Assembly: GCA_050735015.1 (NCBI GenBank) | Contig: JBOHUY010000106.1 | Coordinates: forward strand, 1 to 33,357 | Direction: 5' to 3' | Length of the DNA: 33,357 nucleotides | DNA from: Candidatus Dormibacterales bacterium | GTDB lineage: Bacteria; Chloroflexota; Dormibacteria; Dormibacterales; Dormibacteraceae | Shown here: positions 3,350-19,425 of the stretch, one piece after another | Position numbering within the stretch: the first letter of the stretch is position 1 | How the letters are laid out: the number at the start of each line of letters is the position of its first letter | Notes under the pieces: generated by a model | Database searches by the model: none | What the model was told of the DNA's origin: nothing | The model's input: the letters and a program-made list of their open reading frames with translations, nothing else | Position numbers and translations under genes: made by a program

Positions 3350-4327
3350 TTAGTTTGCGGCCGAACGATTGCTCGATTGTGCCGTTCGACGCGCCAAGTC
3401 CTGCTCGCGATAATGATCGCGCCAGATCAGGCGGTAGATGGGGACCAGTCGCGGTATGTCGCGGAACCCCGGAATGAAGGGAACCAACGCCAGCAGCGTG
3501 GTGAGGCCCAGCATCATGAGCACGACCAGGAGGTCGGCGTCGGAGGCGCTGTTGAACGGTGGCAGCTGGTACCACATCGTGAAGAGCCAGAGCCACGTCT
3601 GCCCCGGATAGCTCCCGGTCTCGTTCATCATTCCCCACTGATCGCCCATCAGGTGCTGCTGCTGCGCCAGCGCCGGCAGGTATCCGCCATCCCCCATGAA
3701 GAGCAGCGGCTTCGTGTAATCGGTCTGGTAGAAGCGGCCGCTGCGCACGAGCAGACCGTCCAGGCCTCCCGTGCGAGCGACGGTCAGAAGCGACGACATC
3801 ATGGTGGTGAGCGGGCCGTAGTGTCCAGTTGGAACAGTGACGACCCCATTCACGACTTCTGCGCGACCGAGTGCCTTGGCGTATGCGGATAGCCAGGTCT
3901 GCTGGGTGTCCCCACCTGCCGAGTTGTAGGTGCGGAGGGCACTCGTCAGGCCGGGGTTGCCGGCGCTCGCGTAGCCGAGTGGCCGGAGGACGAAGTCCTG
4001 CGCCGGGTTGACCGGCTGACGCGTCCCGAACCAGATCTGCGGGGCGAACGGTCCCCACGTCTGGACCGCTCCGGACCCCGTGGTGTATGGCGGACCATAG
4101 CCCGAACTGGTCGTCTGCCCGGCCAACTCTGCCGTGGCAGTGGTGACAAAATCCGCCGGCTGCGCCTGCGCCCACTTCTGGATCGTCAGCGGCGGCTCAT
4201 CAGGCGATGAGAGGACGGCAGAGAGGGCCAGTATGCCGAGCAACACCACACCGAGCGCGATCGCCAATTCTTTAACGAGATCGTAGGGGAGGGTTCTCAC
4301 GCCTCGGTAGTACAGCTCCTGGTCCAT
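3350..4327 (-). CDS. Membrane protein translationally coupled to cytochrome b6-like gene; possible subunit-IV / cytochrome b C-terminal analogue with a very large extracytoplasmic loop
   Basis: ORF track, 325 aa. Its ATG lies 1 nt after the upstream stop. It has an N-terminal TM (LAIALGVVLLGILALSAVL), roughly 200 aa of hydrophilic sequence, then WLWLFTMWYQLPPF followed by a TM (LLVVLMMLGLTTLLALVPFIPGF). Confidence 0.75.
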   Translation of the reverse strand: MDQELYYRGVRTLPYDLVKELAIALGVVLLGILALSAVLSSPDEPPLTIQKWAQAQPADFVTTATAELAGQTTSSGYGPPYTTGSGAVQTWGPFAPQIWFGTRQPVNPAQDFVLRPLGYASAGNPGLTSALRTYNSAGGDTQQTWLSAYAKALGRAEVVNGVVTVPTGHYGPLTTMMSSLLTVARTGGLDGLLVRSGRFYQTDYTKPLLFMGDGGYLPALAQQQHLMGDQWGMMNETGSYPGQTWLWLFTMWYQLPPFNSASDADLLVVLMMLGLTTLLALVPFIPGFRDIPRLVPIYRLIWRDHYREQDLARRTAQSSNRSAAN

Positions 4328-4328
4328 C

Positions 4329-4967
4329 TCACCTGACCTCCGGACGGCGCTCGATCGGCTTCACGACGCCTCGGAAACGGACCTGCATGAGGTGGATCCC
4401 CACCAGCGTGATGAGCAGGACCGGGAACATCAGGATGTGCAAACCGAACATCTGGCCGAAGTTGAGGACGTTGAAAAACGAGCCGACGCCGGTCGAGTTG
4501 ACGGCGTCTTTCGCATTGACCGCGATCCACTGCGAGTCGAAGTTCTGCTGCGCCAGGTAGCCAGTGAACGCGGTGACGATGCTGACCGCGAAGATGACGG
4601 ACCCGACCATCCATGTGGGTGCCCGACCGTGACGCCAGCTCTGCATGAAGAACTGGCCCCAGAGGTGCAGCACCATGAAGACGAAGAAGACCTGGGTGCT
4701 CCAGAAATGCATGCTGTTGAAGAAGCGTCCCGTCGCGCTCATGTGCCACCACTGGGGGCCCATGAAGGCGAGCACGGCGCCGCTGATCACCACCCAGATC
4801 AGCGCCGCCAGGGTGACGACGCCGAACACGTAGACCCAGGAGCCCACATAGGCGGGCTGGCGGTCGGGTAGCAGGTGCGCGTACGGCAGGTGCTTCTCGA
4901 GCCGGGAGCGGACGGCAATCGTCCAGCTGCCGGACGGATTGTCAACAGGGCGCGGTCTCAGACTCAT
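4329..4967 (-). CDS. Cytochrome b N-terminal domain protein (cytochrome b6-like, four helices, two heme-b His pairs)
   Basis: ORF track 4329..5090. The start was set at the ATG at 4967 (MSLRPRPVDNPSGSW...), which is preceded by GGGAGG plus a 6-nt spacer. His pairs are MHFWSTQVFFVFMVLH (13 residues between the His) and LHILMFPVLLITLVGIH (14 between). Other typical cytochrome b sequence: YVGSWVYVFGVVTLAALIWVVISG and FTGYLAQQN. Confidence 0.88.
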   Translation of the reverse strand: MSLRPRPVDNPSGSWTIAVRSRLEKHLPYAHLLPDRQPAYVGSWVYVFGVVTLAALIWVVISGAVLAFMGPQWWHMSATGRFFNSMHFWSTQVFFVFMVLHLWGQFFMQSWRHGRAPTWMVGSVIFAVSIVTAFTGYLAQQNFDSQWIAVNAKDAVNSTGVGSFFNVLNFGQMFGLHILMFPVLLITLVGIHLMQVRFRGVVKPIERRPEVR

Positions 4968-5116
4968 GGCCGGCCTCCCTTCGGCCGGTCGCCGTGCTTC
5001 GGAAACGGCAACACGATGGCGAGGCCGAAGACAAGGACCATGCCGGCGATCATCAGAGCGTTGGGTATCGAGATGCTGATGAAGCCCCAATGCAAGTAGC
5101 TGGCAGGTGTATCCAC
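4964..5116 (-). CDS. Small (50 aa) single-TM protein, first gene of the cytochrome b module; too short for the ORF track
   Basis: GTG at 5116 is preceded by GGAGGA with a 5-6 nt spacer. Translation: (M)DTPASYLHWGFISISIPNALMIAGMVLVFGLAIVLPFPKHGDRPKGGRP. Its TGA stop (4964-4966) overlaps the cytochrome b ATG (4965-4967) in an ATGA junction. Confidence 0.5.
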   Translation of the reverse strand: MDTPASYLHWGFISISIPNALMIAGMVLVFGLAIVLPFPKHGDRPKGGRP

Positions 5117-5609
5117 GTCTATCCTCCGTTTTCGGTTGATTAGACCCGAGGCTACCTTCCGCTGTGCACCCCCGACAGGGCCTTGTGGACGCCCGACCGG
5201 GGGCCGACCGGGCTACCGCGCACCGGGCCGGCCGGCCCCCACCCCAGGGTCGGACCCGCGAGTTGGCGAACGCCCCAGGGCGCGGTCCGATTCCCAGCGG
5301 GAGATCGCCGCCAGCGCCTCTCCGTCCCCGGGCGAATGTTCAGGCCTTCGCCCCGAGGCATCTGCCCCTCGACGACGCGGCCGAGGCGAGCCCGTTCACG
5401 GCCGCCAGTGCAACTCCCCGCGCGCCCGGGCGCCGGGTAGTACCTGGATACGTCGATGCCGCCGCGCGCTCTGCCACCGGCGCCTTGTGCTGCCCGGCGA
5501 CGCCGGCCATGGCTCCGGGGCGGCAGAGGCAATTGTGGGAGAAGGCTGGTTGACGGGAAACGTCCTCGGCCGACCGGGCCATTCGGCTCTACATGCAGGG
5601 TGCTGGCAC

Positions 5610-7145: not shown

Positions 7146-9008
7146 TTGACCGATCCATCCGATCTCTTCGCGCGTGTCTTCGACGCCATGCCCGACGGCG
7201 TCGTGGTCGTGGACGGGGGTGGGCTGATCACCCAGGTCAACCGCCAGATGGAACTCCTCTCCGGCTACCCACGCGAGGAGCTCCGGGGAAAGCCGATCGA
7301 GGTGCTGGTGCCGGCCCCCTACCGAGGCGCTCACGAAACCGATCGCTCGCACTACACACTCGCTCCCGCCCGCCGCGCGATGGGCACGAACCTCGACATC
7401 CACATGCGGCGGAAGGACCGCACCGAGTTTCCGGCGGACATCTCGCTGAGCCCCGTGGAGACAGACACGGGCGTGATGGTGGTCGCCGCGGTCCGTGATA
7501 TCTCGGAGCGCAGGGCCGCCGAGAGCGCGCTGCGTGCAGAGCAGGAGCGTTTTCGCCAGGTGGTGGAGACCGTCAGGGACTACGCGATTTTCATGCTCGA
7601 CCCTGGCGGTCGCGTCACAACGTGGAACCGCGGTGCGGCCGCCATCAACGGTTACACGGGCGAAGAGATCGTCGGGCAGAGCTTCGCGGTCTTCTATCCG
7701 CCCGAGGACATCGCGGCAGGCAAGCCGGGCCGGCAGCTCGAGCAGGCGGCCGAGGAAGGGCGGGTGGAGGGCGCCGGGTGGCGGGTGAGGAAGGACGGCA
7801 GCCGGTTCTGGGCCTACGTGGTGATCACGCCCATCTTCGACGAATCGAGCGCCCTCACCGGGTTCTCCAAGATCACCCGCGACGCCAGCCGCGAGCGGCG
7901 CGAGCGCGAGCGCATCGAAGGCCTCCTCGCAATCTCGGACGCGATCCTGTCCGGCCAGGAGCTCGGCACGATCCTGGTCTTGATCGCGGCCCGGGCTCGC
8001 AGTCTTGTCGAGGGAGCAACCGGAACCGTCGCGATTCCCGCGCCGGACGGCGACGAGTACGTCATCGAAGTCGCTGAAGGCCATGCCGCGGACCGCCTTC
8101 GCGGCCGGCGTCTGCCGCTGGGCGGGTCACTCACCGCGCAGGTCCTTCGCTCCCACTCCGCGGTGTTGGTCGAGGATCTCAGTACCGACCTCCGCTCCTA
8201 CACGGCGGTGGCGGAACCTGTCGGCCACGGCCCAGGCATCCTGCTGCCACTCTTCGTCTCGGGCCACGACTTCGGGACCCTCTGCATCATCAACGCGCGA
8301 GGCGGAAGGCGGTTCACAGAGGAGGATCTTGAGCAGCTACAGGTATTTGCGGCGCAGGCGTCGGTCGCGCTCGAGCACGCCCGCCTGCAGCAGGAGCTGC
8401 AGCGGCTGGCGCTCGTGGAGGATCGGGAACGCATCGGAAGGGAGCTCCACGACGGTGCCGTCCAGGCGTTGTTCGCGGTGGGGATGAGCCTGCAGGCCGC
8501 CGAGGCGCTCACCCCCGACCCGAACCTCCGGCACCGGCTCGACGAGTCGGTCAAGCAGATAGACCAGGTGATTCAAGACCTGCGCAACTACATATTCGGC
8601 CTCCGGCCCGGCATCCTGGCGGACCGAGAGCTGGAGCAGGCGCTGCGAAAGCTGGCGGCTGACTTCGAGGAGGAAGCCGGCGTCACGACCGTGGTCGACG
8701 TCGACCTCCGGCTGTCGGCAGAACTCAGCAATCACGCCGGCGACCTCGTCCAGGTCGCCAGCGAGGCTCTTTCTAACGTGGCGCGCCACGCCGGCGCGAT
8801 GACGTGCCGCCTCACCCTGCACCGCGAGGACGGTTCCGCGGTGCTCGAGGTCGAGGACGACGGGCGGGGGTTCGACCCGCGGGCGCCCAGCCTCGGCCAG
8901 GGGCTGCGCAACTTCCGGGAGCGTGCGGCCGCCCTCGGGGGCGAGGTCTCGATCAGCTCGCAGGCGGGTGAGGGAACAACGGTCCAGGTCCGGATTCCGA
9001 CCAGGTAG
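7146..9008 (+). CDS. Soluble sensor histidine kinase: PAS-PAS-GAF-HisKA_3-HATPase_c
   Basis: C-terminal part of track ORF 6336..9008; upstream of 7110 that ORF is the antisense shadow of the regulator. PAS1 is FARVFDAMPDGVVVVDGGGLITQVN... and PAS2 is FRQVVETVRDYAIFMLDPGGRVTTWNRGAAAINGYTGEEIVG.... A GAF segment follows. The H-box is ERERIGRELHDGAVQ, the N-box EALSNVARHA, G1 DDGRGF and G2 GQGLRNFRERA. No TM segment. The start is TTG 7146, preceded by GAGGAAAGAGGG, or GTG 7131. Confidence 0.9.
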   Translation: MTDPSDLFARVFDAMPDGVVVVDGGGLITQVNRQMELLSGYPREELRGKPIEVLVPAPYRGAHETDRSHYTLAPARRAMGTNLDIHMRRKDRTEFPADISLSPVETDTGVMVVAAVRDISERRAAESALRAEQERFRQVVETVRDYAIFMLDPGGRVTTWNRGAAAINGYTGEEIVGQSFAVFYPPEDIAAGKPGRQLEQAAEEGRVEGAGWRVRKDGSRFWAYVVITPIFDESSALTGFSKITRDASRERRERERIEGLLAISDAILSGQELGTILVLIAARARSLVEGATGTVAIPAPDGDEYVIEVAEGHAADRLRGRRLPLGGSLTAQVLRSHSAVLVEDLSTDLRSYTAVAEPVGHGPGILLPLFVSGHDFGTLCIINARGGRRFTEEDLEQLQVFAAQASVALEHARLQQELQRLALVEDRERIGRELHDGAVQALFAVGMSLQAAEALTPDPNLRHRLDESVKQIDQVIQDLRNYIFGLRPGILADRELEQALRKLAADFEEEAGVTTVVDVDLRLSAELSNHAGDLVQVASEALSNVARHAGAMTCRLTLHREDGSAVLEVEDDGRGFDPRAPSLGQGLRNFRERAAALGGEVSISSQAGEGTTVQVRIPTR

Positions 9009-9009
9009 T

Positions 9010-9352
9010 GCTCCATCCGGGAAATGTGCTCGACCGCGGTTGACCTTCTCAAGAATCGGCTCGACTGACGCGGTCCAGACGAAGGCCTTGGGGTCGGCGT
9101 TGTGGGCTTCCATGTAACGATGAATGGCGGCTACCATTGCGCCCACGCCGCTGACGGATCCCCGGCGGATGGCCCGACTGGTGAGCTGACTGGACAGACC
9201 TCAGTCAGCTTGTACCAGGAGGAGCTGGTGGGCACGAGGTGGACGTGGAAGCGAGGCCGCTGAGACAGTCAGGCATTGAGCTTGGGATGCCCGTGGAGTC
9301 GCGCCGGGTGATCGGATGGCAGGTCGTGCACCGCGCCACTTGCAAAGTCATG
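9010..9352 (-). mobile_element. IS630-family transposase relic (C-terminal third only, inactivated)
   Basis: Minus-strand reading gives ...GHPKLNA*LSQRPRFHVHLVPTSSSWYKLTEV in one frame. After a frame change it gives GLSSQLTSRAIRRGSVSGVGAMVAAIHRYMEAHNADPKAFVWTASVEPILEKVNRGR. This matches the conserved IS630 tail (HPRFHxHFTPTSSSWLNxVExWF...IRRGSF...PFVWTK.A..ILEKV). It carries an in-frame TGA where Trp is expected, at least one frameshift, and no native stop. The N-terminal two-thirds are missing or unrecognisable. Confidence 0.7.
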
Positions 9353-9573
9353 CACCACGATCCTCAGCCGCACACCCCGACCCCCCGGCAGCGGGCGGAG
9401 GCGTGGTCCCAGACTGCGTCGAGCCCAGCTCGCCGGCGGGGGACGACCTCGCCCCCAGCGCCCGCCGCAGCCTGCGCCGGACGCGCCGCAGCTCTCGCTC
9501 CTCGACCGGCTCCAGCCACGCAGCGCGCCTTCTCAGCGCGGCGCGCAAGGAAGGCCAGGCCGGACGCTCGAGG

Positions 9574-9984
9574 TCACCCAAGATGTCGCGCCCCCCACCA
9601 CCGCCCGCCCCGAGGCCCCGCCTTCGCCACCACGCCCGCCTTCCGGCCGTTGAGCGCGCGGACCGGAGCATGGCGGGCGGGCCGCAGTCCCCGCTCCTCG
9701 TCCTCGCGGCGGCCACCGACGCCGTCGGTGCCCGTCCTTGTTGACGCGCCCGCGCGAGAGGGGGTGAGATAGCCGGAACGCTCCTCAGTGCGGCCCGGGC
9801 GCGCGGAGAGGGGCAAGGTCGAGATGTCCCCCCTCTGGCCCACCTCGTCCAGGAGCAAGAGCCCGTGCTCGGCGCAGTCGAGCTCGACGGTCCCCCGCGC
9901 CACGTCCACCCTCACCGAGCACTCGCGCCCGCACTCGGGGCAGGCGTCCGGGCTCAGTTCCAAAGCCAGTCCTTCAAGCTGCAC
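9574..9984 (-). CDS. Candidate small ORF downstream of the nuclease-helicase with a CxxC...CxxH zinc-ribbon-like motif; the C-terminal half may be read-through into degraded DNA
   Basis: Tail of track ORF 9574..11220 after the helicase stop. GTG at 9984 is preceded by GAGGTG plus a 6-nt spacer. Translation: (M)QLEGLALELSPDACPECGRECSVRVDVARGTVELDCAEHGLLLLDEVGQRGDISTLPLS.... Third codon positions are mostly G/C. After about 65 aa the sequence becomes Arg/Gly-rich and low in complexity. Confidence 0.25.
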   Translation of the reverse strand: MQLEGLALELSPDACPECGRECSVRVDVARGTVELDCAEHGLLLLDEVGQRGDISTLPLSARPGRTEERSGYLTPSRAGASTRTGTDGVGGRREDEERGLRPARHAPVRALNGRKAGVVAKAGPRGGRWWGARHLG

Positions 9985-10058
9985 ATCGATCACCTCGAGG
10001 TCGACTCTGGGGGTGGGCCGCGTCAGGTGTGTGTCGCGGCGGGCCCGCCCGCCGGCGA

Positions 10059-13000
10059 TCAGGTCAGGCCCGGTTCCGATCGCCCCGCCGCGGCGAGGCG
10101 GCAGAGGGCGTTCACGAGGCGCATCTCCCTGGGGCTCTTGGCCCCCGCCCGGAGCAGGGCGGGGCTGCAGACGAGCACGGCCAGGCCCTGGCCCCGGGAG
10201 ACGGCCACGTTGAGGCGGTTGAGCGAGTAGAGGAAGTCGAGGCCGCGCGGCATGTCCTGCGCGGAAGACGTGGCCATTGAGTAGATGACCGCGGGCGCCT
10301 CCAGGCCCTGGAACCTGTCCACCGTGCCCACGCGGGCGCCCTCGGGCAGCCAGGCCCGCAGGAGCGCCACCTGGGCGTTGTAGGGCGCCACGACAAGGAT
10401 GTCGGCGACGCCGAGGGGCCTCGTCATCCCGTCCGAGCCCGTCCAGGGCCTTCCCAGGAGGTCCTGGAAGACGACCAGCGCGGCGGCGGCCTCCTCCGCG
10501 GACCGCGTCCGGTTGTCGGTGTGCGCGACAGGCACGTAGCGGATGCCGGCGCCGGCCGCCCATCCCTCTCCCCCCACCGCCTGGCGGGAGCAGGAGGCCC
10601 GGGCCTCGAGACGCCCTTCGTAGGCGACCTCGGACACGAAGTGGCACAGGCGAGGGTGCATGCGCCAGGTCCGGTCCAGGAAGATCCCGCGGTCCTCCGG
10701 CATCGTGATCGAGTCCCCCAACAGGTGCTCCAGGCAGGAGACGTCCGCGCCCGGCGGGTGCACGCCCTGGGACGGCATGGCGAGCTGGTTGGGGTCGCCG
10801 ATGAGGACGAGGTTGCGGGCGGCGCCGCCGACCGCGAGCACGTCCGCCAGCGAGACCTGGCCCGCCTCGTCGACGAAGAGCACATCCACCGCCTCCGCCA
10901 TCGGCTCTCGCGCGAAGAGCCAGGCCGTGCCGGCGACGAGGTCGGACTCCCGCGCCCGCGACTCGGCCTCGGCGCGGCTGTCGGTGCAGAGCACCCCTGG
11001 AAGGCCGCAGCACTCCCCCGCGGGCGCCTTCTGGACGGCGGAGGGCCGCATCGAGCCCTCGCGGGCGGCCAGGTCCCAGACGCTCTCCAGGAAATGGGAG
11101 ATGACCCTGTGGCTGGCGGCCGTGACGCCCACGCGCCGGCCTCGCCGGACGAGCTCGAGCGCCATCTCGGCCCCGGTCCGCGTCTTGCCCGTCCCGGGCG
11201 GCCCCTGGAGGGCCAGGCACCCGTCCCTCAGGGCCAGAACCGCCCGCACCGCCGCCGCCCCGGCCTCCTCACCGGGCACCCGGGCCAGGCTGACGCCGGG
11301 CGCGAGCCGGGGCGGTCGCCGGAGAAGGAGGTCGCGCGCCGCCCGGCAGGGTCCCTCCCCGTCGACACCGCTCTCGGCCACCGACCTCGCCAGCCGCGCG
11401 ATGGCGTTTCTCTGCTCGGTGTCCCCCGGGGGGCCCTCGGGGATCAGCGAGCGCGGGTGGGGCGCCGCGGAGCCGGCCCGCCGCCTGAGCTCGATCCAGC
11501 CCTGCGTGGCGTCCGCGCCCACCACCTCCCCACACCCTCTGCCCGTGCGCGGGTCGACGGGGTGCGAGCCGGCCAGGATCTTGTGCTCCTGGGGCTCGTG
11601 GGAGTACCGGTGCACCTCCGACCGGGCACCCGAACCGGCGGTGCCCTCGTGGCGGAGGCCGCCCAGGGCGGAGCTCTCCTCCTGGAGCTCGGCGTCGGAC
11701 ATCTCCAGCCTCTGGAAGTGCGCCCACCACTGGGACCTGGCCTCCCGCCGGTGCCACGTGAGGAGCTGCGCCAGCAGCCAGCGCGCCTGCTGCTCCTCGC
11801 TGCGAGCCTCCCTTTCCTCCGGCACCCCCTGCGTGAGGAGCCCCCCGAGCCGGGCCGACTCCCGCTCCGCCTGCTCCAGGGCGGGGCCCGGCCGGTCGCT
11901 CGCCGGGGCCGGGCGGGTCGGCTCCCACCCCGCCTCGGTGCCCGCCTCCCGCCGCCGCTCCTCCAGCCAGTCGCGAAGCCTCAAGGTGGACAGGCAGTCC
12001 GCCTCGTTGTACGCGCGGATGCTCTCCAGGGTGGCGGGGTCCTGGGATTGCAGCCACTCCTCGTAGGCGGCGATGCTGGCAGCCGCGCGGGTGATGACGC
12101 CCTCCCTCTCGGCCATGTAGAGGGGCTCCAGGGCCTTGAGCGAATACGACTCCCCTGAAGCCCTGAGGGAGTGGCGCACGACCCGGTAGAGGTCGACCAG
12201 GACCTTCCCGCGCAGGAACCGGTCGACCTCCGCCTCCCGCGTCGCGTGGCGTCCCATCAGCTTCTTGAGGGCCGACGGCTCGTAGTCGGCGTAATGGAAC
12301 ACGTGCAGCTCCGGCCAGCGCTCGAGCCTGGCCATGAGGAAGTCGACGAACCCCTCCAGCGCCGCCTTCTCGCCCGCGGGGTCGTGGGCCCACCAGCACC
12401 GGAAGCGAGGCTCCCCGCCCTCTCTCCAGAGGACCCCGAAGAGGTACTCGAGTCCAGCCTCGGTGGCGAAGGGGTCCCCCTCCATGTCGAAGAAGACGTC
12501 GCCCGGGGAGGGCTCCGGGAGCGCGGACAGCCCCGTCCCCGCCGGACCCGGCGGCAGCAGCTCGTACAGGGCGCCGGGTGTCGACCGGCCCTCCAGCTGC
12601 AGGCGGGCCTGGCGCCTCAGCCCGTCCAGCGCGGCGGCGCCGATGCCGCCCACCGCCAGCCCCTCGCCCGCCCGGCCCAGCGCCTCCAGCGTCTCGATCC
12701 CGGCCGCCCGGAGCTTGTGGGCCTGGTCGCGGCGCATACCCGCCACCAGGCTCAGGTGGTCGTCGGCCCGCCTTCTCGCCTCGCACGCCTCCGCCCACCG
12801 GCAGACCCCGCAGTGCTCGACCGGCTCCGGGTAGGTGGAGGGGCCGGTGGCGACGGCGGCCTCCAGGCGCTCTCGGGCGGAGGCCAGGTAGCAGGTATGG
12901 TCGAGGACTCGGAAGGCCACCTCCGACCCGTCTCCCAGGACCAGGTGCATGTGCTCGGGCAGCCTGCCCTGGACCGCGGCCAGCATCTCCGAGTAGAGGC

Positions 13001-13454
13001 AGGTCTGGAGCAGGGCGCGCGCCTTGGCCCGGCGGGCCAGCTTGGTGTCCAGGACCTCGTAGCTCCACGGCCCCAGCCGGCTGGGCCGGTCGAGACGCCG
13101 CAGGAAGTCCGCCACCCCCAGCCACCGGCCGTCGAAGAAGACGGCCTGGTAGATGAAGGCCTCGCCTCGCGACATGGCGGCGACGGTGGCGCCGGCGGCG
13201 CTCACGTGAGCCTCTCGGGTGGGACCCGGAGGCGGGACACGGAAGACCCGCGCGCGAGATTCCAGGGCCGCCAGGTAGCCCGCCTCGTGGGCCTCGCCGC
13301 GGCGGGCCACAACCTCCAGCTCGGGGTCCAACCGCCGGGGCCGCTCAAGCTCGCCGCGGGCGGCCGCCAGCTCCAGCCCGGCCAGGTGCTCGCAGGCCAT
13401 GAAGCCGGTGAGGTCGGTGGCGCTCAGCACCAGCCGTCCGTCCAGGAGCTGCAC
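10059..13454 (-). CDS. TM0106-type RecB-like (Cas4-like, Fe-S) nuclease + RNase-H-fold exonuclease-like domain + Upf1/DNA2-like SF1 helicase fusion protein
   Basis: ORF track, 1131 aa. The N-terminus has Cys-20 (FMACEH) plus HCGVCRWAEAC (CxxCx5C) and the nuclease core GVADFL...YEVLDTKLA. The middle has DVFFDMEGDPF...FHYADYE...SYSLKALE. The helicase motifs are GPPGTGKT, FVDEAGQ, GDPNQL, WRMHPRLCHFVSEVAYEGRL, VVAPYNAQV, VGTVDRFQGLEAPAVIYS and LNVAVSRGQG. Confidence 0.9.
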   Translation of the reverse strand: MQLLDGRLVLSATDLTGFMACEHLAGLELAAARGELERPRRLDPELEVVARRGEAHEAGYLAALESRARVFRVPPPGPTREAHVSAAGATVAAMSRGEAFIYQAVFFDGRWLGVADFLRRLDRPSRLGPWSYEVLDTKLARRAKARALLQTCLYSEMLAAVQGRLPEHMHLVLGDGSEVAFRVLDHTCYLASARERLEAAVATGPSTYPEPVEHCGVCRWAEACEARRRADDHLSLVAGMRRDQAHKLRAAGIETLEALGRAGEGLAVGGIGAAALDGLRRQARLQLEGRSTPGALYELLPPGPAGTGLSALPEPSPGDVFFDMEGDPFATEAGLEYLFGVLWREGGEPRFRCWWAHDPAGEKAALEGFVDFLMARLERWPELHVFHYADYEPSALKKLMGRHATREAEVDRFLRGKVLVDLYRVVRHSLRASGESYSLKALEPLYMAEREGVITRAAASIAAYEEWLQSQDPATLESIRAYNEADCLSTLRLRDWLEERRREAGTEAGWEPTRPAPASDRPGPALEQAERESARLGGLLTQGVPEEREARSEEQQARWLLAQLLTWHRREARSQWWAHFQRLEMSDAELQEESSALGGLRHEGTAGSGARSEVHRYSHEPQEHKILAGSHPVDPRTGRGCGEVVGADATQGWIELRRRAGSAAPHPRSLIPEGPPGDTEQRNAIARLARSVAESGVDGEGPCRAARDLLLRRPPRLAPGVSLARVPGEEAGAAAVRAVLALRDGCLALQGPPGTGKTRTGAEMALELVRRGRRVGVTAASHRVISHFLESVWDLAAREGSMRPSAVQKAPAGECCGLPGVLCTDSRAEAESRARESDLVAGTAWLFAREPMAEAVDVLFVDEAGQVSLADVLAVGGAARNLVLIGDPNQLAMPSQGVHPPGADVSCLEHLLGDSITMPEDRGIFLDRTWRMHPRLCHFVSEVAYEGRLEARASCSRQAVGGEGWAAGAGIRYVPVAHTDNRTRSAEEAAAALVVFQDLLGRPWTGSDGMTRPLGVADILVVAPYNAQVALLRAWLPEGARVGTVDRFQGLEAPAVIYSMATSSAQDMPRGLDFLYSLNRLNVAVSRGQGLAVLVCSPALLRAGAKSPREMRLVNALCRLAAAGRSEPGLT

Positions 13455-13597
13455 CTCTCAGCGGCCCCGCCGCGGCCGCGGCCGCGCCCGGCCGGCCGCG
13501 CCTTCCGCCTCGATACCGTGAGCGTCGCCCCTCGTCATGGCGACAGCATCATCCGCCCCGCCGGCGCCAGCTCTCTGTCGCCTCCGCCCCCCGGTGG

Positions 13598-13603
13598 CAT
13601 AAT
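13598..13603 (+). promoter_or_regulatory. Candidate -10 box (CATAAT) for the WYL regulator gene
   Basis: CATAAT lies 14 nt upstream of the ATG at 13618, implying a very short leader (GGAAAGAC). No good -35 is present. The inverted repeat GTCGCC-N9-GGCGAC at 13524-13544 in the same 163-bp divergent region is a possible operator. Confidence 0.25.
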
Positions 13604-13617
13604 CGCCCCGGAAAGAC

Positions 13618-14688
13618 ATGGAGCCGTTCCAGAAGCAGGACCGCGTTCTCCGCCTTCTGAAGGAGCTCACGATCTTCCAGGGCGCGGCCCACGGACTCAC
13701 CACGCGCGACCTCGCCGACCGCATGGACATCAGCCAGCGCACGGCGCAGCGGGACATCGCCGCCCTGGAGTCGGAGATCGGCGTCCCCTTCCAGCTGGTG
13801 GGGTCGCGCTGGAAGGTCATCCCGGGCTGGTTCCTGCCCCCCGTCAACCTCAACATCCAAGAGGCGATGGCGCTCCTTCTGGGGGCAAGGCTCATGCTCC
13901 GCTACGCGGACCGCGCCAACCCCTTCGCCACCTCCGCCTACCAGAAGGTTGCCGCGGTCCTGCCCGAGGGGGTGCGGGGCGCGCTCGCGGAGACCGCCCA
14001 AGGGCTCTCGCTCAAGGCCCAGGACGCCGTCTACCTCAAGGTGCTGGCGACCCTCACCTCGGCCTGGGCGGAGCGCCGCAAGGTCTCCATCGCCTACCGG
14101 TCGGGAAACGGGGGCGGCGCCGAGGCCCAAAGACGCACCGTGCACCCCCTCTTCCTGGAGCCCAGCGCCCCCGGCCACGGCTGCTACCTCATCGCCTGGG
14201 ACGAGACGCGCGGCGCCACCCGCAACTTCAAGCTCGAGCGGATCTCGGACGCCCGCCTTTTGGAGACCGCCTTCTCGCCTCCCGCCGGCTTCTCCGTCGC
14301 CCGTCACCTGGCCGGCGCCTGGGGAGTCTGGTCGTCCGAGGACCCGGTCGAGGTCGTGCTGCTCTTCGACCGCTCCGTCGCGGCGCGAGTCAGGGAGACG
14401 GTCTGGCACCCGAGCCAGGTCCTGGAGCAGGAGGCGGACGGCCGCCTCCGGCTGCGGCTCCGGGTGGCGTCGGCGGTGGAGATCCGGCACTGGGTGCTGG
14501 GCTGGGGCGGCGCCTGCGAGGTGGTGTCCCCTCGGTCGCTGCGCCAGGAGGTGGCCTCGCAGGCCCGCGCGATGGCCCGCGCGTACGGCCTGGACGGGGA
14601 GCCGGCGCGCGTCGGGCGCCTGCTGGCCGGCCTCGAGGCGGCGGCGGCAGAGAAGGCCCCCCGCGCGCGCGGCCGGAAGGCGGGGTAG
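13618..14688 (+). CDS. HTH-WYL-WCX transcriptional regulator (PafBC/BrxR/CapW-like architecture)
   Basis: ORF track, 356 aa. The N-terminal HTH is DRVLRLLKELTIFQGAAHGLTTRDLADRMDISQRTAQRDIAALESEIGVPF. The WYL domain is RRKVSIAYRS...RTVHPLFLEPSAPGHGCYLIAWDETRGATRNFKLERISDARLL. The C-terminal WCX-like part is VEVVLLFDRSVAARVRETVWHPSQ...EIRHWVLGWGGACEVVSPRSLR. Confidence 0.9.
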   Translation: MEPFQKQDRVLRLLKELTIFQGAAHGLTTRDLADRMDISQRTAQRDIAALESEIGVPFQLVGSRWKVIPGWFLPPVNLNIQEAMALLLGARLMLRYADRANPFATSAYQKVAAVLPEGVRGALAETAQGLSLKAQDAVYLKVLATLTSAWAERRKVSIAYRSGNGGGAEAQRRTVHPLFLEPSAPGHGCYLIAWDETRGATRNFKLERISDARLLETAFSPPAGFSVARHLAGAWGVWSSEDPVEVVLLFDRSVAARVRETVWHPSQVLEQEADGRLRLRLRVASAVEIRHWVLGWGGACEVVSPRSLRQEVASQARAMARAYGLDGEPARVGRLLAGLEAAAAEKAPRARGRKAG

Positions 14689-14697
14689 CCGGGCGGG

Positions 14698-14717
14698 GCC
14701 CCCCTTTCCCCTGGGGG
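14698..14717 (+). terminator. Weak C6/G6 hairpin just after the WYL gene
   Basis: CCCCCC (14698-14703), loop TTTCCCCT, GGGGGG (14712-14717), starting 10 nt after the stop. No T-tract. Confidence 0.25.
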
Positions 14718-14947
14718 GATGACAGGCGGAGTCTTGGATGCCATCCTTGGCGGCGCAGCATCGGGCGGCGCCCTGATCGGGTCGGGAGTCGCCGGCGGGA
14801 AGGGGCGCCCACCTGAGGTGAGGAGATGAGCGTCGGATCGGCGCGTTGGGCGACGTCGGGCCACTCGTGCACCGCGCGGGGCGCCCAGGAGGGAGCCCGC
14901 GACCATTCCGGGGGCTCGGCGATCGGCCGCCCCGGCCGGCGGACAGG

Positions 14948-14975
14948 CCCCCCCACCCCACCCCCTCCCCTCCCC
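14948..14975 (-). repeat. G-quadruplex-prone tract (C-runs on plus strand, G-runs on minus strand)
   Basis: Plus strand reads CCCCCCC-A-CCCC-A-CCCCC-T-CCCC-T-CCCC: five runs of at least four C separated by single nucleotides. It ends 80 nt upstream of the ATG at 15056. Confidence 0.6.
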
Positions 14976-15055
14976 GAGGACCTGCCCGGTCGCCGCGCCA
15001 CCCAAGAGCCCGCGTGAGACCCGAGGGGGCCCGGCGCCGCTCCCCCGGTTCCGGC

Positions 15056-17664: not shown

Positions 17665-17961
17665 AGCGGATGCCGGGCCAGGGGGGTTGGGACTTTCGCG
17701 CCCCCGGGCGGGACGATGGCACCCCAACCGGGCGTGGGCGCGACCGCGCAGCCCGGCCCGCGCGCGGCTGCGGATGGTGCGAATGGCATGCTGGATCGGC
17801 CCTAGTGCTTGCTTTGTCGGCAAGGGGGGGCGAAGATTACAGCACTCCGGCCCCGGGCACCGCGCTCGGCCGCCTGGGCCGAAGCCTCGTCACGCGCGTA
17901 CACCCGGGTTCCGAGCCGGCCCCGTCCAGGGCGCCTCGATAACGCGTAAGGAGGACGACGC

Positions 17962-19425
17962 ATGAAGCGTGCACGCAAGTCGAAGGTGCCGCCCGTCCCG
18001 GCCGCCTCGGCGCCGGAGGGCACGGGGCTCTTCCAGCGGCGGCTGTCGCGGCGGGAGTTCGTCAAGTCGACCGGGCTGCTGGCCCTCTCGGCGACCAGCG
18101 CCCCCGCCATCTTGGCCGCCTGCGGGACGTCGCCGTCGACCAAGTCGGGGACCAAGAGCGGGCCCAAGACGCTCAAGGTCCTGCAGTGGAGCCACTTCGT
18201 CCCCAAGTACGACACCTGGTTCGACCCCTACGCCCAAAGCTGGGGCCAGAAGAACAACGTCACCATCACCGTCGACCACATCAACAACGCGCTCCTCCCC
18301 GCCCGCACGGCGGCCGAGATCAGCGCCGGCTCCGGGCACGACCTCATCGAGTGGATCACCTCGCCCTCCCAGTACGAGCCCGGCGTCTTGGACCTCTCGG
18401 ACGTCGTGACGGAGGCGGCGAAGAAGTACGGCAGCCAGATCCCCTTCTGCAAGGCCAGCAGCTACAACCCCAAGACCAACAAGTTCTACGGCTTCTGCCA
18501 CGGCTACGCGCCCGACCCGGGCGACTACCGCAAGAGCGACTTCTCGGCCGTGGGCCTGCCCGACGGCCCCACCACCTACGACCAACTGCTGACCGCCGCC
18601 ACCGCCATCTACAAGACCAAGAAGCTGCGGCTCGGCCTCGGGATGTCGCCTGAGGTGGACTCCAACATGGCCTCGCGCGCCCTCATCTGGTCCTACGGCG
18701 GCTCGATCCAGGACGCCAACGAGAACGTGGTCTTCAACTCCCCGCAGACGGTGGCGGCGGTGGAGTGGATGGTCAAGGCCTTCAAACAGGCCATGAGCTC
18801 GGAGGTCTTCAGCTGGACGGCCGCCTCCAACAACCAGGGCCTGGTGGCGGGCCAGCTCTCCTACATCCTCAACTCCATCTCCGCCTACCGGACGGCCCAG
18901 ACGACGCGTCCCGACATCGCCAACGACATCTTCTTCGTGCCCGCCCTCAAGGGCCCGAGCGGCACCGGCCTGGTCGGCGAGCACGTCGTCTACGTCTACA
19001 TCATCCCCAGCTTCTCCAAGAACGCGGACACCGCCAAGCAGTTCATCTTGGACCTGGTCGGGCACTACCACGACGCCGTCTACAACTCGGAGCTCTACAA
19101 CTTCCCCTCCTTCACCAACACGGGCGCGCAGTCGGCGCTCTTCTCGAGCGGCGGCTGGCTCGACAACGACCCCTTCGGGTCGCACCCCGCCAACAAGCTC
19201 CAGGTCCTGAAGTCGGCGCAGAGCTGGAGCACCAACGTGGGCTATCCGGGACCCTCCAGCGCGGCCGTCGGGGAGGTCTTCAACACCTTCGTGCTGCCCA
19301 ACATGATGGCCAGCGCGGCCAAGGGCCAGGCCAGCCCCCAGCAGGCGGTCGCGAACGCCGACTCCCAGATCAAGGCCATCTTCCAGAAGTGGCGCCAGAA
19401 GGGGCTGGTGGGAGGCAGTTCATAG
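17962..19425 (+). CDS. Sugar ABC-transporter extracellular solute-binding lipoprotein (family 1) with a Tat-type signal
   Basis: ORF track, 487 aa. The RBS is TAAGGAGG 7 nt upstream. The Tat signal is RRLSRREFVKSTGLLALSATSAPAILAACG, containing the lipobox. Confidence 0.9.
   Translation: MKRARKSKVPPVPAASAPEGTGLFQRRLSRREFVKSTGLLALSATSAPAILAACGTSPSTKSGTKSGPKTLKVLQWSHFVPKYDTWFDPYAQSWGQKNNVTITVDHINNALLPARTAAEISAGSGHDLIEWITSPSQYEPGVLDLSDVVTEAAKKYGSQIPFCKASSYNPKTNKFYGFCHGYAPDPGDYRKSDFSAVGLPDGPTTYDQLLTAATAIYKTKKLRLGLGMSPEVDSNMASRALIWSYGGSIQDANENVVFNSPQTVAAVEWMVKAFKQAMSSEVFSWTAASNNQGLVAGQLSYILNSISAYRTAQTTRPDIANDIFFVPALKGPSGTGLVGEHVVYVYIIPSFSKNADTAKQFILDLVGHYHDAVYNSELYNFPSFTNTGAQSALFSSGGWLDNDPFGSHPANKLQVLKSAQSWSTNVGYPGPSSAAVGEVFNTFVLPNMMASAAKGQASPQQAVANADSQIKAIFQKWRQKGLVGGSS

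Follow-up and report, generated by a model that had tools for sequence, protein, structure and literature searches.

A DriD-like WYL regulator paired with a DNA2-like nuclease-helicase fusion in Dormibacterales, a candidate module for inducible DNA destruction

Introduction

WYL regulators are known as activators of DNA-damage responses, such as DriD and PafBC, or as repressors of phage-defence operons, such as BrxR and CapW, and the cassette family described here joins both themes. Its representative in Candidatus Dormibacterales bacterium consists of two divergent genes within a 33,357-nucleotide (nt) stretch of contig JBOHUY010000106.1 (assembly GCA_050735015.1), the whole of which is called the window. 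One gene encodes a 356-amino-acid (aa) regulator with helix-turn-helix (HTH), WYL and WCX domains; the other encodes a 1131-aa polypeptide, here called the fusion, in which two nuclease domains precede a superfamily 1 (SF1) helicase. Regulator and effector are coupled, a statement made with good confidence on their linkage, shared clade, operator and promoter, and purifying selection. The parts are of known kinds, the activator being a WYL protein of the DriD type and the nuclease-helicase resembling DNA2 or AddAB, and some of their associations have been noted in silico (PMC9503650). The cassette family itself, its operator/promoter code and the TM0106-helicase effector have neither name nor characterisation in PADLOC, NCBIfam and the literature searched.

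DriD of Caulobacter crescentus (8TP8, 9PFQ/9PFV) binds at the -35 position, a fixed distance from the -10, and activates a divergent operon, not its own gene (PMC13004042). Its box, ATACGACAGTTACTGTCGTAT, has been published together with its activation of recA and recJ (PMC10853764), and the promoters of the DriD-activated CCNA_03891 and didA show, by our reading of their sequences, the spacing TGTCGC/TGGCGC-N10-nAnnnT (PMC13004042). The window regulator shares the winged HTH (wHTH)-3HB-WYL-WCX layout of DriD, which is its best match in the Protein Data Bank (PDB). Base-reading arginines, most contacts to single-stranded DNA (ssDNA), near-identical half-sites (CGACAG...CTGTCG) and a box lying 10 nt upstream of a -10 that lacks a -35 are also held in common. 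The two differ in that the single-sequence, full-length match reaches an E value of only 4e-17, the cassette spacer is one nt longer, and Glu40 of DriD is replaced by Gln. Cassette targets are leaderless, local helicase-nuclease genes, whereas the DriD regulon is dispersed (didA, recA, recJ, bapE).

PafBC is likewise an ssDNA-responsive WYL activator of -35-less promoters, and it induces the end-resection machines AdnAB and RecBCD (PMC8223512). PafBC is a heterodimer or a fused double HTH-WYL-WCX protein, whereas the window regulator is a single unit; its motif is non-palindromic, serves more than 150 genes and is not bound without RNA polymerase, whereas the window box is palindromic. BrxR and CapW belong to the same three-domain family and adjoin defence operons, and CapW also senses ssDNA (PMC11662680). 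These two are repressors with operators that overlap promoters, whereas the window box stands upstream of the -10, and the similarity of BrxR (7QFZ) to the regulator-clade profile is marginal, with an E value of 1e-3 over the WYL domain alone.

Among nuclease-helicases, the fusion most resembles eukaryotic and archaeal DNA2, in which an SF1B helicase is preceded in the same chain by an iron-sulphur (Fe-S) PD-(D/E)xK nuclease. Identity is only about 14%, and the fusion is bacterial, WYL-controlled, and extended by a DEDDy domain and a helix-hairpin-helix-like segment between nuclease and helicase. AddAB and AdnAB, with or without SbcCD, also combine a motor with two nuclease activities, and AddAB occupies the same slot behind the same box at sister loci, but their two-subunit SF1A UvrD-type motors have no sequence relationship to the fusion helicase. 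Mokosh supplies the best PADLOC matches (MkoA and MkoC, with a COG1112-type helicase core), but the match is limited to residues 834-1110 and the defining phospholipase D nuclease is absent from the fusion. Staphylococcal Nhi, attributed to Bari et al. (2022), is reportedly a single polypeptide of nuclease and Upf1-like SF1 helicase that acts alone against phage. The window fusion differs in its TM0106/Cas4-type nuclease, its DEDDy domain and its dedicated WYL activator, and no homology between the two is claimed beyond the helicase core. No Nhi model appeared among the PADLOC matches at E ≤0.01, the presence of such a model in that library being unconfirmed.

A further point of comparison is a group of predicted conflict systems centred on ADP-ribosylglycohydrolase (ARG), in which TY-Chap3 and ARPP were defined alongside WYL or Nudix regulators, an ARPP-WYL pair was noted, and negative regulation by ADP-ribose-type ligands was proposed (PMC9503650). 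Relatives of the window cassette, though not the window itself, resemble these systems in having a WYL factor, TY-Chap3, ARPP and restriction-endonuclease-fold effectors linked to helicases; the window is without TY-Chap3 and ARPP. The ARG core (ADP-ribosylglycohydrolase and rhodanese-phosphatase) was found neither in the window nor in the cassettes of relatives, and the 25 commonest families in the flanks of relatives do not include it.

An earlier note on this locus, made from its sequence, recognised no named system in the combination, and searches of PADLOC-DB 2.0 and NCBIfam agree, with matches at domain level only. The PADLOC-DB models MkoA, MkoC and DpdJ match only the helicase core of the fusion, the regulator matches generic WYL models, and NCBIfam returns for the fusion only the TM0106 domain name. 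A literature search on TM0106 yielded nothing relevant, and a Cas4 phylogenomics paper does not describe a TM0106-helicase fusion.

The fusion and its regulator

Both open reading frames (ORFs) proposed in the earlier note are present, divergent and separated by 163 bp (13455-13617) between start codons (Table 1). Coding signatures are strong in this GC-rich window (64-78%), with GC contents at third codon positions (GC3) of 0.94 for the fusion and 0.95 for the regulator, and Pfam recovers the expected domains in the regulator (HTH_11 at residues 12-59, WYL at 142-213, WCX at 243-320).

The triple-domain composition claimed for the larger protein is borne out by profile matches. TIGR03491, the TM0106 RecB-like nuclease, scores 283.1 bits against a cutoff of 97.45 and covers residues 11-497 (profile positions 2-462 of 462). 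RNase_H_2 matches residues 320-497 (3e-29), and AAA_11, AAA_12 and AAA_30 match residues 733-1103. The helicase core carries a Walker A motif, GPPGTGKT (751-758), and DEAGQ (862-866), and its PDB profile matches are IGHMBP2, Upf1, DNA2 and Sen1. In an alignment of 25 sequences (the fusion and 24 homologues of 52-59% identity), the PD-(D/E)xK residues D116, E133, D136 and K138, the QxxxY motif Q150..Y154, the DEDDy residues D323, E325, D421, Y482 and D486, and both helicase motifs are invariant, as are the cluster cysteines C215, C218 and C224; the fourth, C21, is conserved in at least 90%.

An AlphaFold2 (AF2) model of the fusion has a mean predicted local distance difference test score of 86.8 and a predicted template modelling score of 0.78. 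Foldseek ranks mouse DNA2 (5EAN, E 4e-27) first among full-length matches, ahead of the helicases IGHMBP2, Upf1 and Sen1, and the DNA2-like order of Fe-S nuclease and SF1B helicase is found in one chain. Residues 501-729 have no Pfam match; in the model this region consists of helices (473-591) and strands (601-659) comparable to the accessory domains of DNA2 and Upf1. From these domains the fusion is best read as a DNA-end-processing machine in which two nucleases accompany a 5'-3' motor, with polarity and substrates predicted by homology, and it would probably degrade both strands.

The regulator-clade profile matches DriD 8TP8 at 9e-30 (positions 4-319; also 9PFQ) and PafBC 6SJ9 at 4e-25. 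The base-reading residues R37, E40 and R41 of DriD align with R41, Q44 and R45 of the window protein, with R41 and R45 invariant in the clade, and the DriD ssDNA contacts Y168, R178, Y192, R204, R207 and Y240 correspond to Y160, R173, Y190, R202, K205 and W238. Most of these aligned base-reading and ssDNA-contact positions are invariant in the regulator clade. The contacts, largely conserved, are no more than suggestive of an ssDNA-responsive pocket, and by analogy with DriD the ligand would be ssDNA. The earlier note had named both DriD/PafBC and BrxR/CapW as precedents. The first comparison holds on these scores; the second gives way to the marginal BrxR match and to a promoter geometry of the activator type. 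Assignment to the DriD/PafBC activator class, rather than to the BrxR/CapW repressor class, is therefore favoured, and DriD-like activation is favoured over repression because both promoter geometry and homology point to it.

Operator, promoters and leader

An inverted repeat, GCGACAG-N4-CTGTCGC, stands upstream of almost every regulator gene in the clade, and further boxes occur upstream of TY-Chap3, vWA and ARPP-1 genes. It amounts to the DriD box with one additional spacer base (CGAC-N8-GTCG against CGAC-N7-GTCG). Across about 100 unique boxes, TGTCGC is followed after N10 by an nAnnnT hexamer, then by 6-9 nt and an ATG, and such box-promoters precede fusion, ARPP-1, vWA, TY-Chap3 and SbcD genes. 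The pattern box-N10-(-10)-N6-9-ATG describes a predicted -35-less promoter giving a leaderless mRNA, and as a rule it is directly usable to find more regulon members.

On the minus strand, the window promoter reads CGACAGAGAGCTGGCGC-N10-GATGAT-N9-ATG. The family geometry is kept both here and in the closest relative found, locus L083, which has its box at the same place, and GATGAT occurs at the same spacing in L104, L136, L138 and L140. The CTGGCG half-site of the window box is a half-site of the published DriD didA site. A first reading of the region as a rearranged operator, GTCGCC-N9-GGCGACAG-N28-CTGTCGCC, was replaced by the one-mismatch canonical box at 13565-13580, which agrees with the geometry of the family; CTGTCGCC at 13575-13582 is a second pairing partner of GGCGACAG. 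No sigma-70 -35/-10 pair was found at either the effector or the regulator promoter, and a generic sigma-70 promoter and terminator scan of 9000-15000 found nothing. A GGTGACATAAT-like element is conserved at the -10 position of the regulator gene in nearly all relatives, again with no -35 found.

The box and promoter of the window open not the fusion directly but the ATG (13538) of a 26-codon upstream ORF (uORF), the TGA stop of which (13460-13458) lies one codon before the fusion GTG in the same frame. The same arrangement is seen in L083, apart from a 6-nt in-frame indel and TTG as start codon. The uORF appears to be a lineage-specific insertion, because in relatives such as L108 and L126 a leaderless ATG is itself the start codon of the fusion. 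Translation of the fusion would probably proceed by termination-reinitiation from the uORF. The GC-rich leader and uORF RNA folds no better than shuffled sequences (z = -0.87), and therefore no structured attenuator is claimed. The uORF body (13461-13512) contains overlapping CGGCCG-type palindromes and includes the 6-nt indel relative to L083; it looks like a slippage-prone, low-complexity insert between the ancestral leaderless start and the fusion start.

Some relatives carry paired boxes upstream of the regulator, 60 to about 250 nt apart (L141:260-390, L143:2244-2506, L145:51-127), and in L141 and L143 each of the two boxes has its own -10 and leaderless ATG. In a Candidatus Dormiibacterota contig (L014:5955-6001), a fusion gene with no WYL gene within 6 kb upstream is preceded, at a distance of 31 nt, by a perfect box, CGACAGGCAGCTGTCG, which suggests regulation in trans; the regulon may be dispersed in some genomes.

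A modular cassette family

Relatives were drawn from a scan of a limited set of soil metagenomes with the regulator-clade alignment, which gave 80 loci, then de-duplicated at 97% nucleotide identity. In 63 lineages the WYL protein is at least 48% identical to the window regulator. A helicase-nuclease effector, either the fusion or an AddAB-like enzyme and sometimes with SbcCD, is present in 38 of the 63: the fusion in 26 and an AddB-like plus AddA-like pair in 12. Another 15 show accessory genes only before the contig ends, and the 10 without any cassette gene all lie on contigs of at most 5.8 kb, every longer contig having at least one. None of the cassette genes was seen in nine more distant WYL lineages (<48% identity).

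The WYL-linked fusions, 23 in number, form one clade in a neighbour-joining tree of 109 fusion proteins, a clade of 24 tips that includes a single outsider, L001, which itself has a box-like palindrome upstream. The earlier note had asked whether orthologues of the fusion keep a divergent WYL neighbour, and the answer is divided: one fusion clade is tied to one WYL clade, but the broad family is not (1 of 80 species-representative genomes). Its proposal of a regulator and effector unit is upheld by the recurrence of the pair in independent lineages, dozens of them, by the conservation of operator and promoter, and by a ratio of nonsynonymous to synonymous substitution (dN/dS) of about 0.2. The last figure comes from L083, a contig collinear with the window at 91.5% nucleotide identity, with the same divergent arrangement and a regulator 93% identical; the ratio is 0.20 both for the regulator, over 357 codons, and for the fusion, over its first 70 codons, and both genes are under purifying selection.

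Gene order varies among relatives. WYL, vWA, TY-Chap3 and effector may follow one another on one strand; ARPP-1, TY-Chap3 and effector may read away from a divergent WYL gene; the fusion may be divergent from WYL followed by TY-Chap3, or from WYL alone, as in the window, L083 and L108-110; and SbcD-like, SbcC-like, AddB and AddA genes may be divergent from WYL. L117 has the full cassette of WYL, ARPP-1, TY-Chap3 and fusion. The effector slot is interchangeable, holding either the fusion or AddAB under the same box. Searches of the window by tblastn and with purpose-built hidden Markov models (HMMs) found no homologue of TY-Chap3, ARPP-1, vWA, X340 or X212. The window pair is a minimal two-gene form of a larger modular family, its accessory genes having been lost, and most likely derives from a cassette of defence islands. 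The cassette is accordingly not the 'self-contained' one of the earlier note but a reduced member of a family composed of WYL, ARPP-1 or vWA, TY-Chap3 and effector.

An operon of SbcD-like (Metallophos), SbcC-like (AAA_23/SMC_N), AddB and AddA genes is found at L103:6695-9846, L142:6827-10302 and L147:6931-9890, leaderless and behind the same WYL box in all three. By annotation it is a complete double-strand-break end-processing set under putative DriD-like control. The fusion, in turn, is often trailed by a gene of 212-350 aa without a Pfam match, usually overlapping or tightly adjacent (L084:14678-15730, L085:14490-15512, L117:4045-5130, L082:3674-4312, L136/L140 at ~4495-5133, L169:9345-10304, L171:9405-10127). 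At least two unrelated families (X340/X350 and X212) occupy this slot in relatives, and other genes do so on plasmids; the gene after the fusion may encode a variable partner or confer specificity.

The fusion family at large

Proteins with all three domains are very common, with 7464 matches at E ≤1e-10, and species-representative genomes contain at least 599 fusion loci, spread over Chloroflexota, Actinomycetota, Acidobacteriota, Alphaproteobacteria and Bacteroidota as well as other phyla. Neighbour clustering at the best 80 genome loci (42-52% identity) found no conserved partner and no gene family at more than 8 of the 80. A WYL partner was found at one, as a weak tblastn match to the window WYL protein, and a linkage of the entire family to WYL genes was dropped because of this single weak match and the lack of a conserved neighbour.

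The fusion is also present on 69 plasmid records, 58 of them with full-length copies and 26 conjugative, where its neighbours include VapBC, integrase, Abi, HNH and DUF4011 genes. None of 50,697 GenBank phage genomes carries it, and IMG/VR holds only five full-length copies, all near contig ends; on these grounds the fusion as a phage gene was ruled out. The family is accordingly sporadic and mobile, neither a syntenic core gene nor, taken as a whole, linked to WYL.

Defence or repair

In the proposed mechanism, the WYL protein would act as a homodimeric activator of the DriD type, expressed from a -35-less, extended -10 promoter of its own. Single-stranded DNA from phage replication, plasmid entry or DNA breakage would enter the WYL/WCX pocket and lead to binding at the CGACAG-N4-CTGTCG-type box (13565-13580), and the bound activator would recruit RNA polymerase to the -35-less promoter on the opposite strand (-10 GATGAT, 13553-13548). 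A leaderless mRNA would open with the 26-codon uORF, and the fusion GTG would then be reached by termination-reinitiation. The fusion, as a 5'-3' SF1B motor with an Fe-S PD-(D/E)xK nuclease and a DEDDy 3'-5' exonuclease, would engage a DNA end and degrade the two strands, and would therefore be functionally equivalent to AddAB. Taken as a whole and with its defence reading, this model of a two-gene sensor-effector module for inducible destruction of invading or linear DNA stands about evenly between acceptance and doubt.

A defence role is favoured on four grounds: the defence islands of relatives, plasmid carriage of the broader family, module shuffling, and conflict-type accessory parts. Flanks of relatives contain type IIG, I, II and III restriction-modification genes, PglX (BREX), DrmMI and MADS genes (mad2, mad3, HNH), as well as MzaE, Mrr, McrBC, AIPR-Z1-DUF4420, GmrSD, NERD and DRT. 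The island-like setting expected by the earlier note is thus seen in relatives but not in the flanks of the window. A broader proposal is that the cassettes form an unnamed anti-phage or anti-plasmid class in which an ssDNA-activated DriD-type activator controls a DNA2-like fusion or AddAB, with or without SbcCD, while TY-Chap3, ARPP-1 and vWA act as accessory sensors or safeguards and the window pair is the minimal form; this is offered tentatively, as somewhat less probable than the model for the window pair.

Several observations weigh against the defence model. The window pair does not itself lie in a defence island, with no PADLOC match in its flanks, and the flank census of relatives consists of heuristic gene calls with aggregated PADLOC and Pfam HMM counts. 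The tree of 109 fusions carries no support values. The window box has one mismatch to the clade consensus, and searching the window for the box motif gives, by itself, no significant result (4 matches, 3.4 expected). No lineage but that of the window has the uORF arrangement. The characterised relatives of the regulator class, DriD and PafBC, all run DNA-damage responses, and the SbcD-SbcC-AddB-AddA sister cassettes consist of classic repair genes.

These last points lead to the main rival, in which a local DriD/PafBC-like activator induces an end-resection enzyme after chromosome breakage for the purpose of recombinational repair. The regulator is nearest to DriD and PafBC and conserves ssDNA-contact residues; the PafBC regulon includes AdnAB and RecBCD, and DriD activates recA and recJ. 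For ARPP, an action on lesions of the sugar or abasic type has been suggested, and HIRAN, a domain that binds DNA ends, is another of its partners (PMC9503650); moreover, the neighbourhood of the window is ordinary rather than defence-like. As the regulator clade also drives AddAB and SbcCD-AddAB operons, repair stays a serious alternative to defence. It is nonetheless judged less likely than defence, as relatives lie inside dense defence islands, the broader fusion family (mostly without a WYL partner) is sporadic, lacks conserved synteny and is often plasmid-borne, accessory and effector modules are shuffled as is typical of conflict systems, and the partners TY-Chap3 and vWA are not known repair factors.

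Two other explanations concern the workings of the pair rather than its purpose. HTH-WYL-WCX regulators beside defence genes are often repressors, and CapW shows that ssDNA sensing is compatible with that role (PMC11662680), so the WYL protein might, as in BrxR/CapW, block the effector promoter from the box until a ligand releases it; the extra half-sites at 13523-13546 do overlap the predicted transcript start. The box, however, is at the -35 position, a fixed 10 nt from a weak -10 and with no -35, which is the DriD/PafBC activator geometry, and the BrxR similarity is confined to the WYL domain, making repression quite improbable. Alternatively, the pair could be a decaying remnant, left after accessory-gene loss and forming no working unit. 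TY-Chap3, ARPP-1, vWA and the downstream X340/X212 genes are indeed missing from the window, the box has its mismatch, an 87-nt GC-rich insert separates promoter from fusion start, and the fusion is followed downstream by about 850 nt that could be assigned to nothing and by an IS630 relic. Yet both ORFs are intact with all catalytic residues, dN/dS against L083 is low with arrangement, box and uORF unchanged, L108-110 are likewise without accessory genes, and CTGGCG serves as a working half-site in the didA site of DriD; decay is accordingly given very little credence.

In the cassette family, a DriD-like regulator of the activator type, with a clear and strongly conserved operator/promoter code, is tied to helicase-nuclease effectors found in defence islands. 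The locus offers a compact case for asking whether ssDNA sensing gates an 'inducible RecBCD-like' immunity, and for the question of the boundary between repair and defence. It also provides a first functional handle on the uncharacterised, plasmid-borne TM0106-helicase fusion family, with its thousands of members, and on TY-Chap3 and ARPP-1.

Flanking genes and other features

Table 1. Features of the window, with positions, strand and the basis of each assignment
Feature	Positions	Strand	Basis or remarks
Fusion gene, 1131 aa, nuclease-exonuclease-helicase, DNA2-like	10059..13454	-	GTG start 13454, stop 10059-10061
Cas4/RecB-type PD-(D/E)xK nuclease with 4-Cys Fe-S cluster, residues 1-235	12750..13454	-	TIGR03491, conserved motifs
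RNase-H-fold DEDDy 3'-5' exonuclease-like domain, residues 318-500	11955..12503	-	RNase_H_2, invariant motif residues
Helical stalk and beta-barrel linker, residues 501-729	11268..11954	-	AF2 secondary structure, DNA2 structural alignment
SF1B (Upf1/DNA2/IGHMBP2-like) helicase core, residues 730-1131	10062..11267	-	AAA_11/AAA_12/AAA_30, PDB profiles
Regulator gene, 356-aa wHTH-WYL-WCX, DriD/PafBC-like	13618..14688	+	Pfam domains, PDB profile matches
Regulator HTH domain	13651-13794	+	Pfam
Regulator WYL domain	14041-14256	+	Pfam
Regulator WCX domain	14344-14577	+	Pfam
Putative DriD-like operator box CGCCAGCTCTCTGTCG; minus-strand reading CGACAGAGAGCTGGCG	13565..13580		1 mismatch to CGACAG-N4-CTGTCG
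Predicted -10 GATGAT of the effector promoter	13548..13553	-	10 nt from box, 9 nt from uORF ATG
Extra half-sites, everted repeat GTCGCC-N9-GGCGACAG across the uORF start	13523..13546		conserved in L083
Predicted extended -10 TGGCATAAT of the regulator's own promoter	13595..13603	+	near-leaderless mRNA
Predicted leaderless 26-codon uORF MTRGDAHGIEAEGAAGRARPRPRRGR*	13458..13538	-	in frame with the fusion; at the family ATG position
ORFan with CxxC...CxxH pattern ('zinc-ribbon'), 3' of the fusion	9574..9984/10005	-	not supported as part of the system
IS630-family transposase C-terminal relic, 64 aa	9006..9197	-	47-50% identity to annotated IS630 transposases, E 4e-10

The 'zinc-ribbon' ORF that the earlier note had tentatively attached to the cassette exists and shows its cysteine pattern, but membership of the system is not borne out: it has no Pfam match, no relative in about 180 fetched loci, and only a self-match among 1.84 billion representatives.

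Composition shifts sharply at 9000-9500, from GC 0.64-0.69 and GC3 of about 0.80 on the left to GC 0.71-0.78 and GC3 of 0.90-0.97 on the right. The decayed IS630 copy, regarded in the earlier note as a border of the cassette, is real; it abuts the stop of a histidine-kinase gene (9008), exactly where the composition breaks, and is a neighbour marking that break, not a cassette border or component. About 550 nt of GC-rich, unassignable sequence follow it.

Other flanking genes in the window encode a P-type ATPase, a cytochrome-b-like pair, a two-component system (response regulator and PAS/GAF kinase), a solute-binding protein, a sulfotransferase and an ABC transporter. On the minus strand, the overlapping ORFs at 3350-4360 and 4329-5339 each have an open-frame length of exactly 336 aa. 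Pfam recognises cytochrome-b N-terminal domains in one of them and nothing in the other; the two may be tandem paralogues. The solute-binding-protein gene (17950-19425, plus strand) has an extreme codon-position skew, with GC at first codon positions of 0.55 and GC3 of 0.97; several high-GC3 shadow ORFs lie on its opposite strand, and such shadows dominate the ORF lists of the window.

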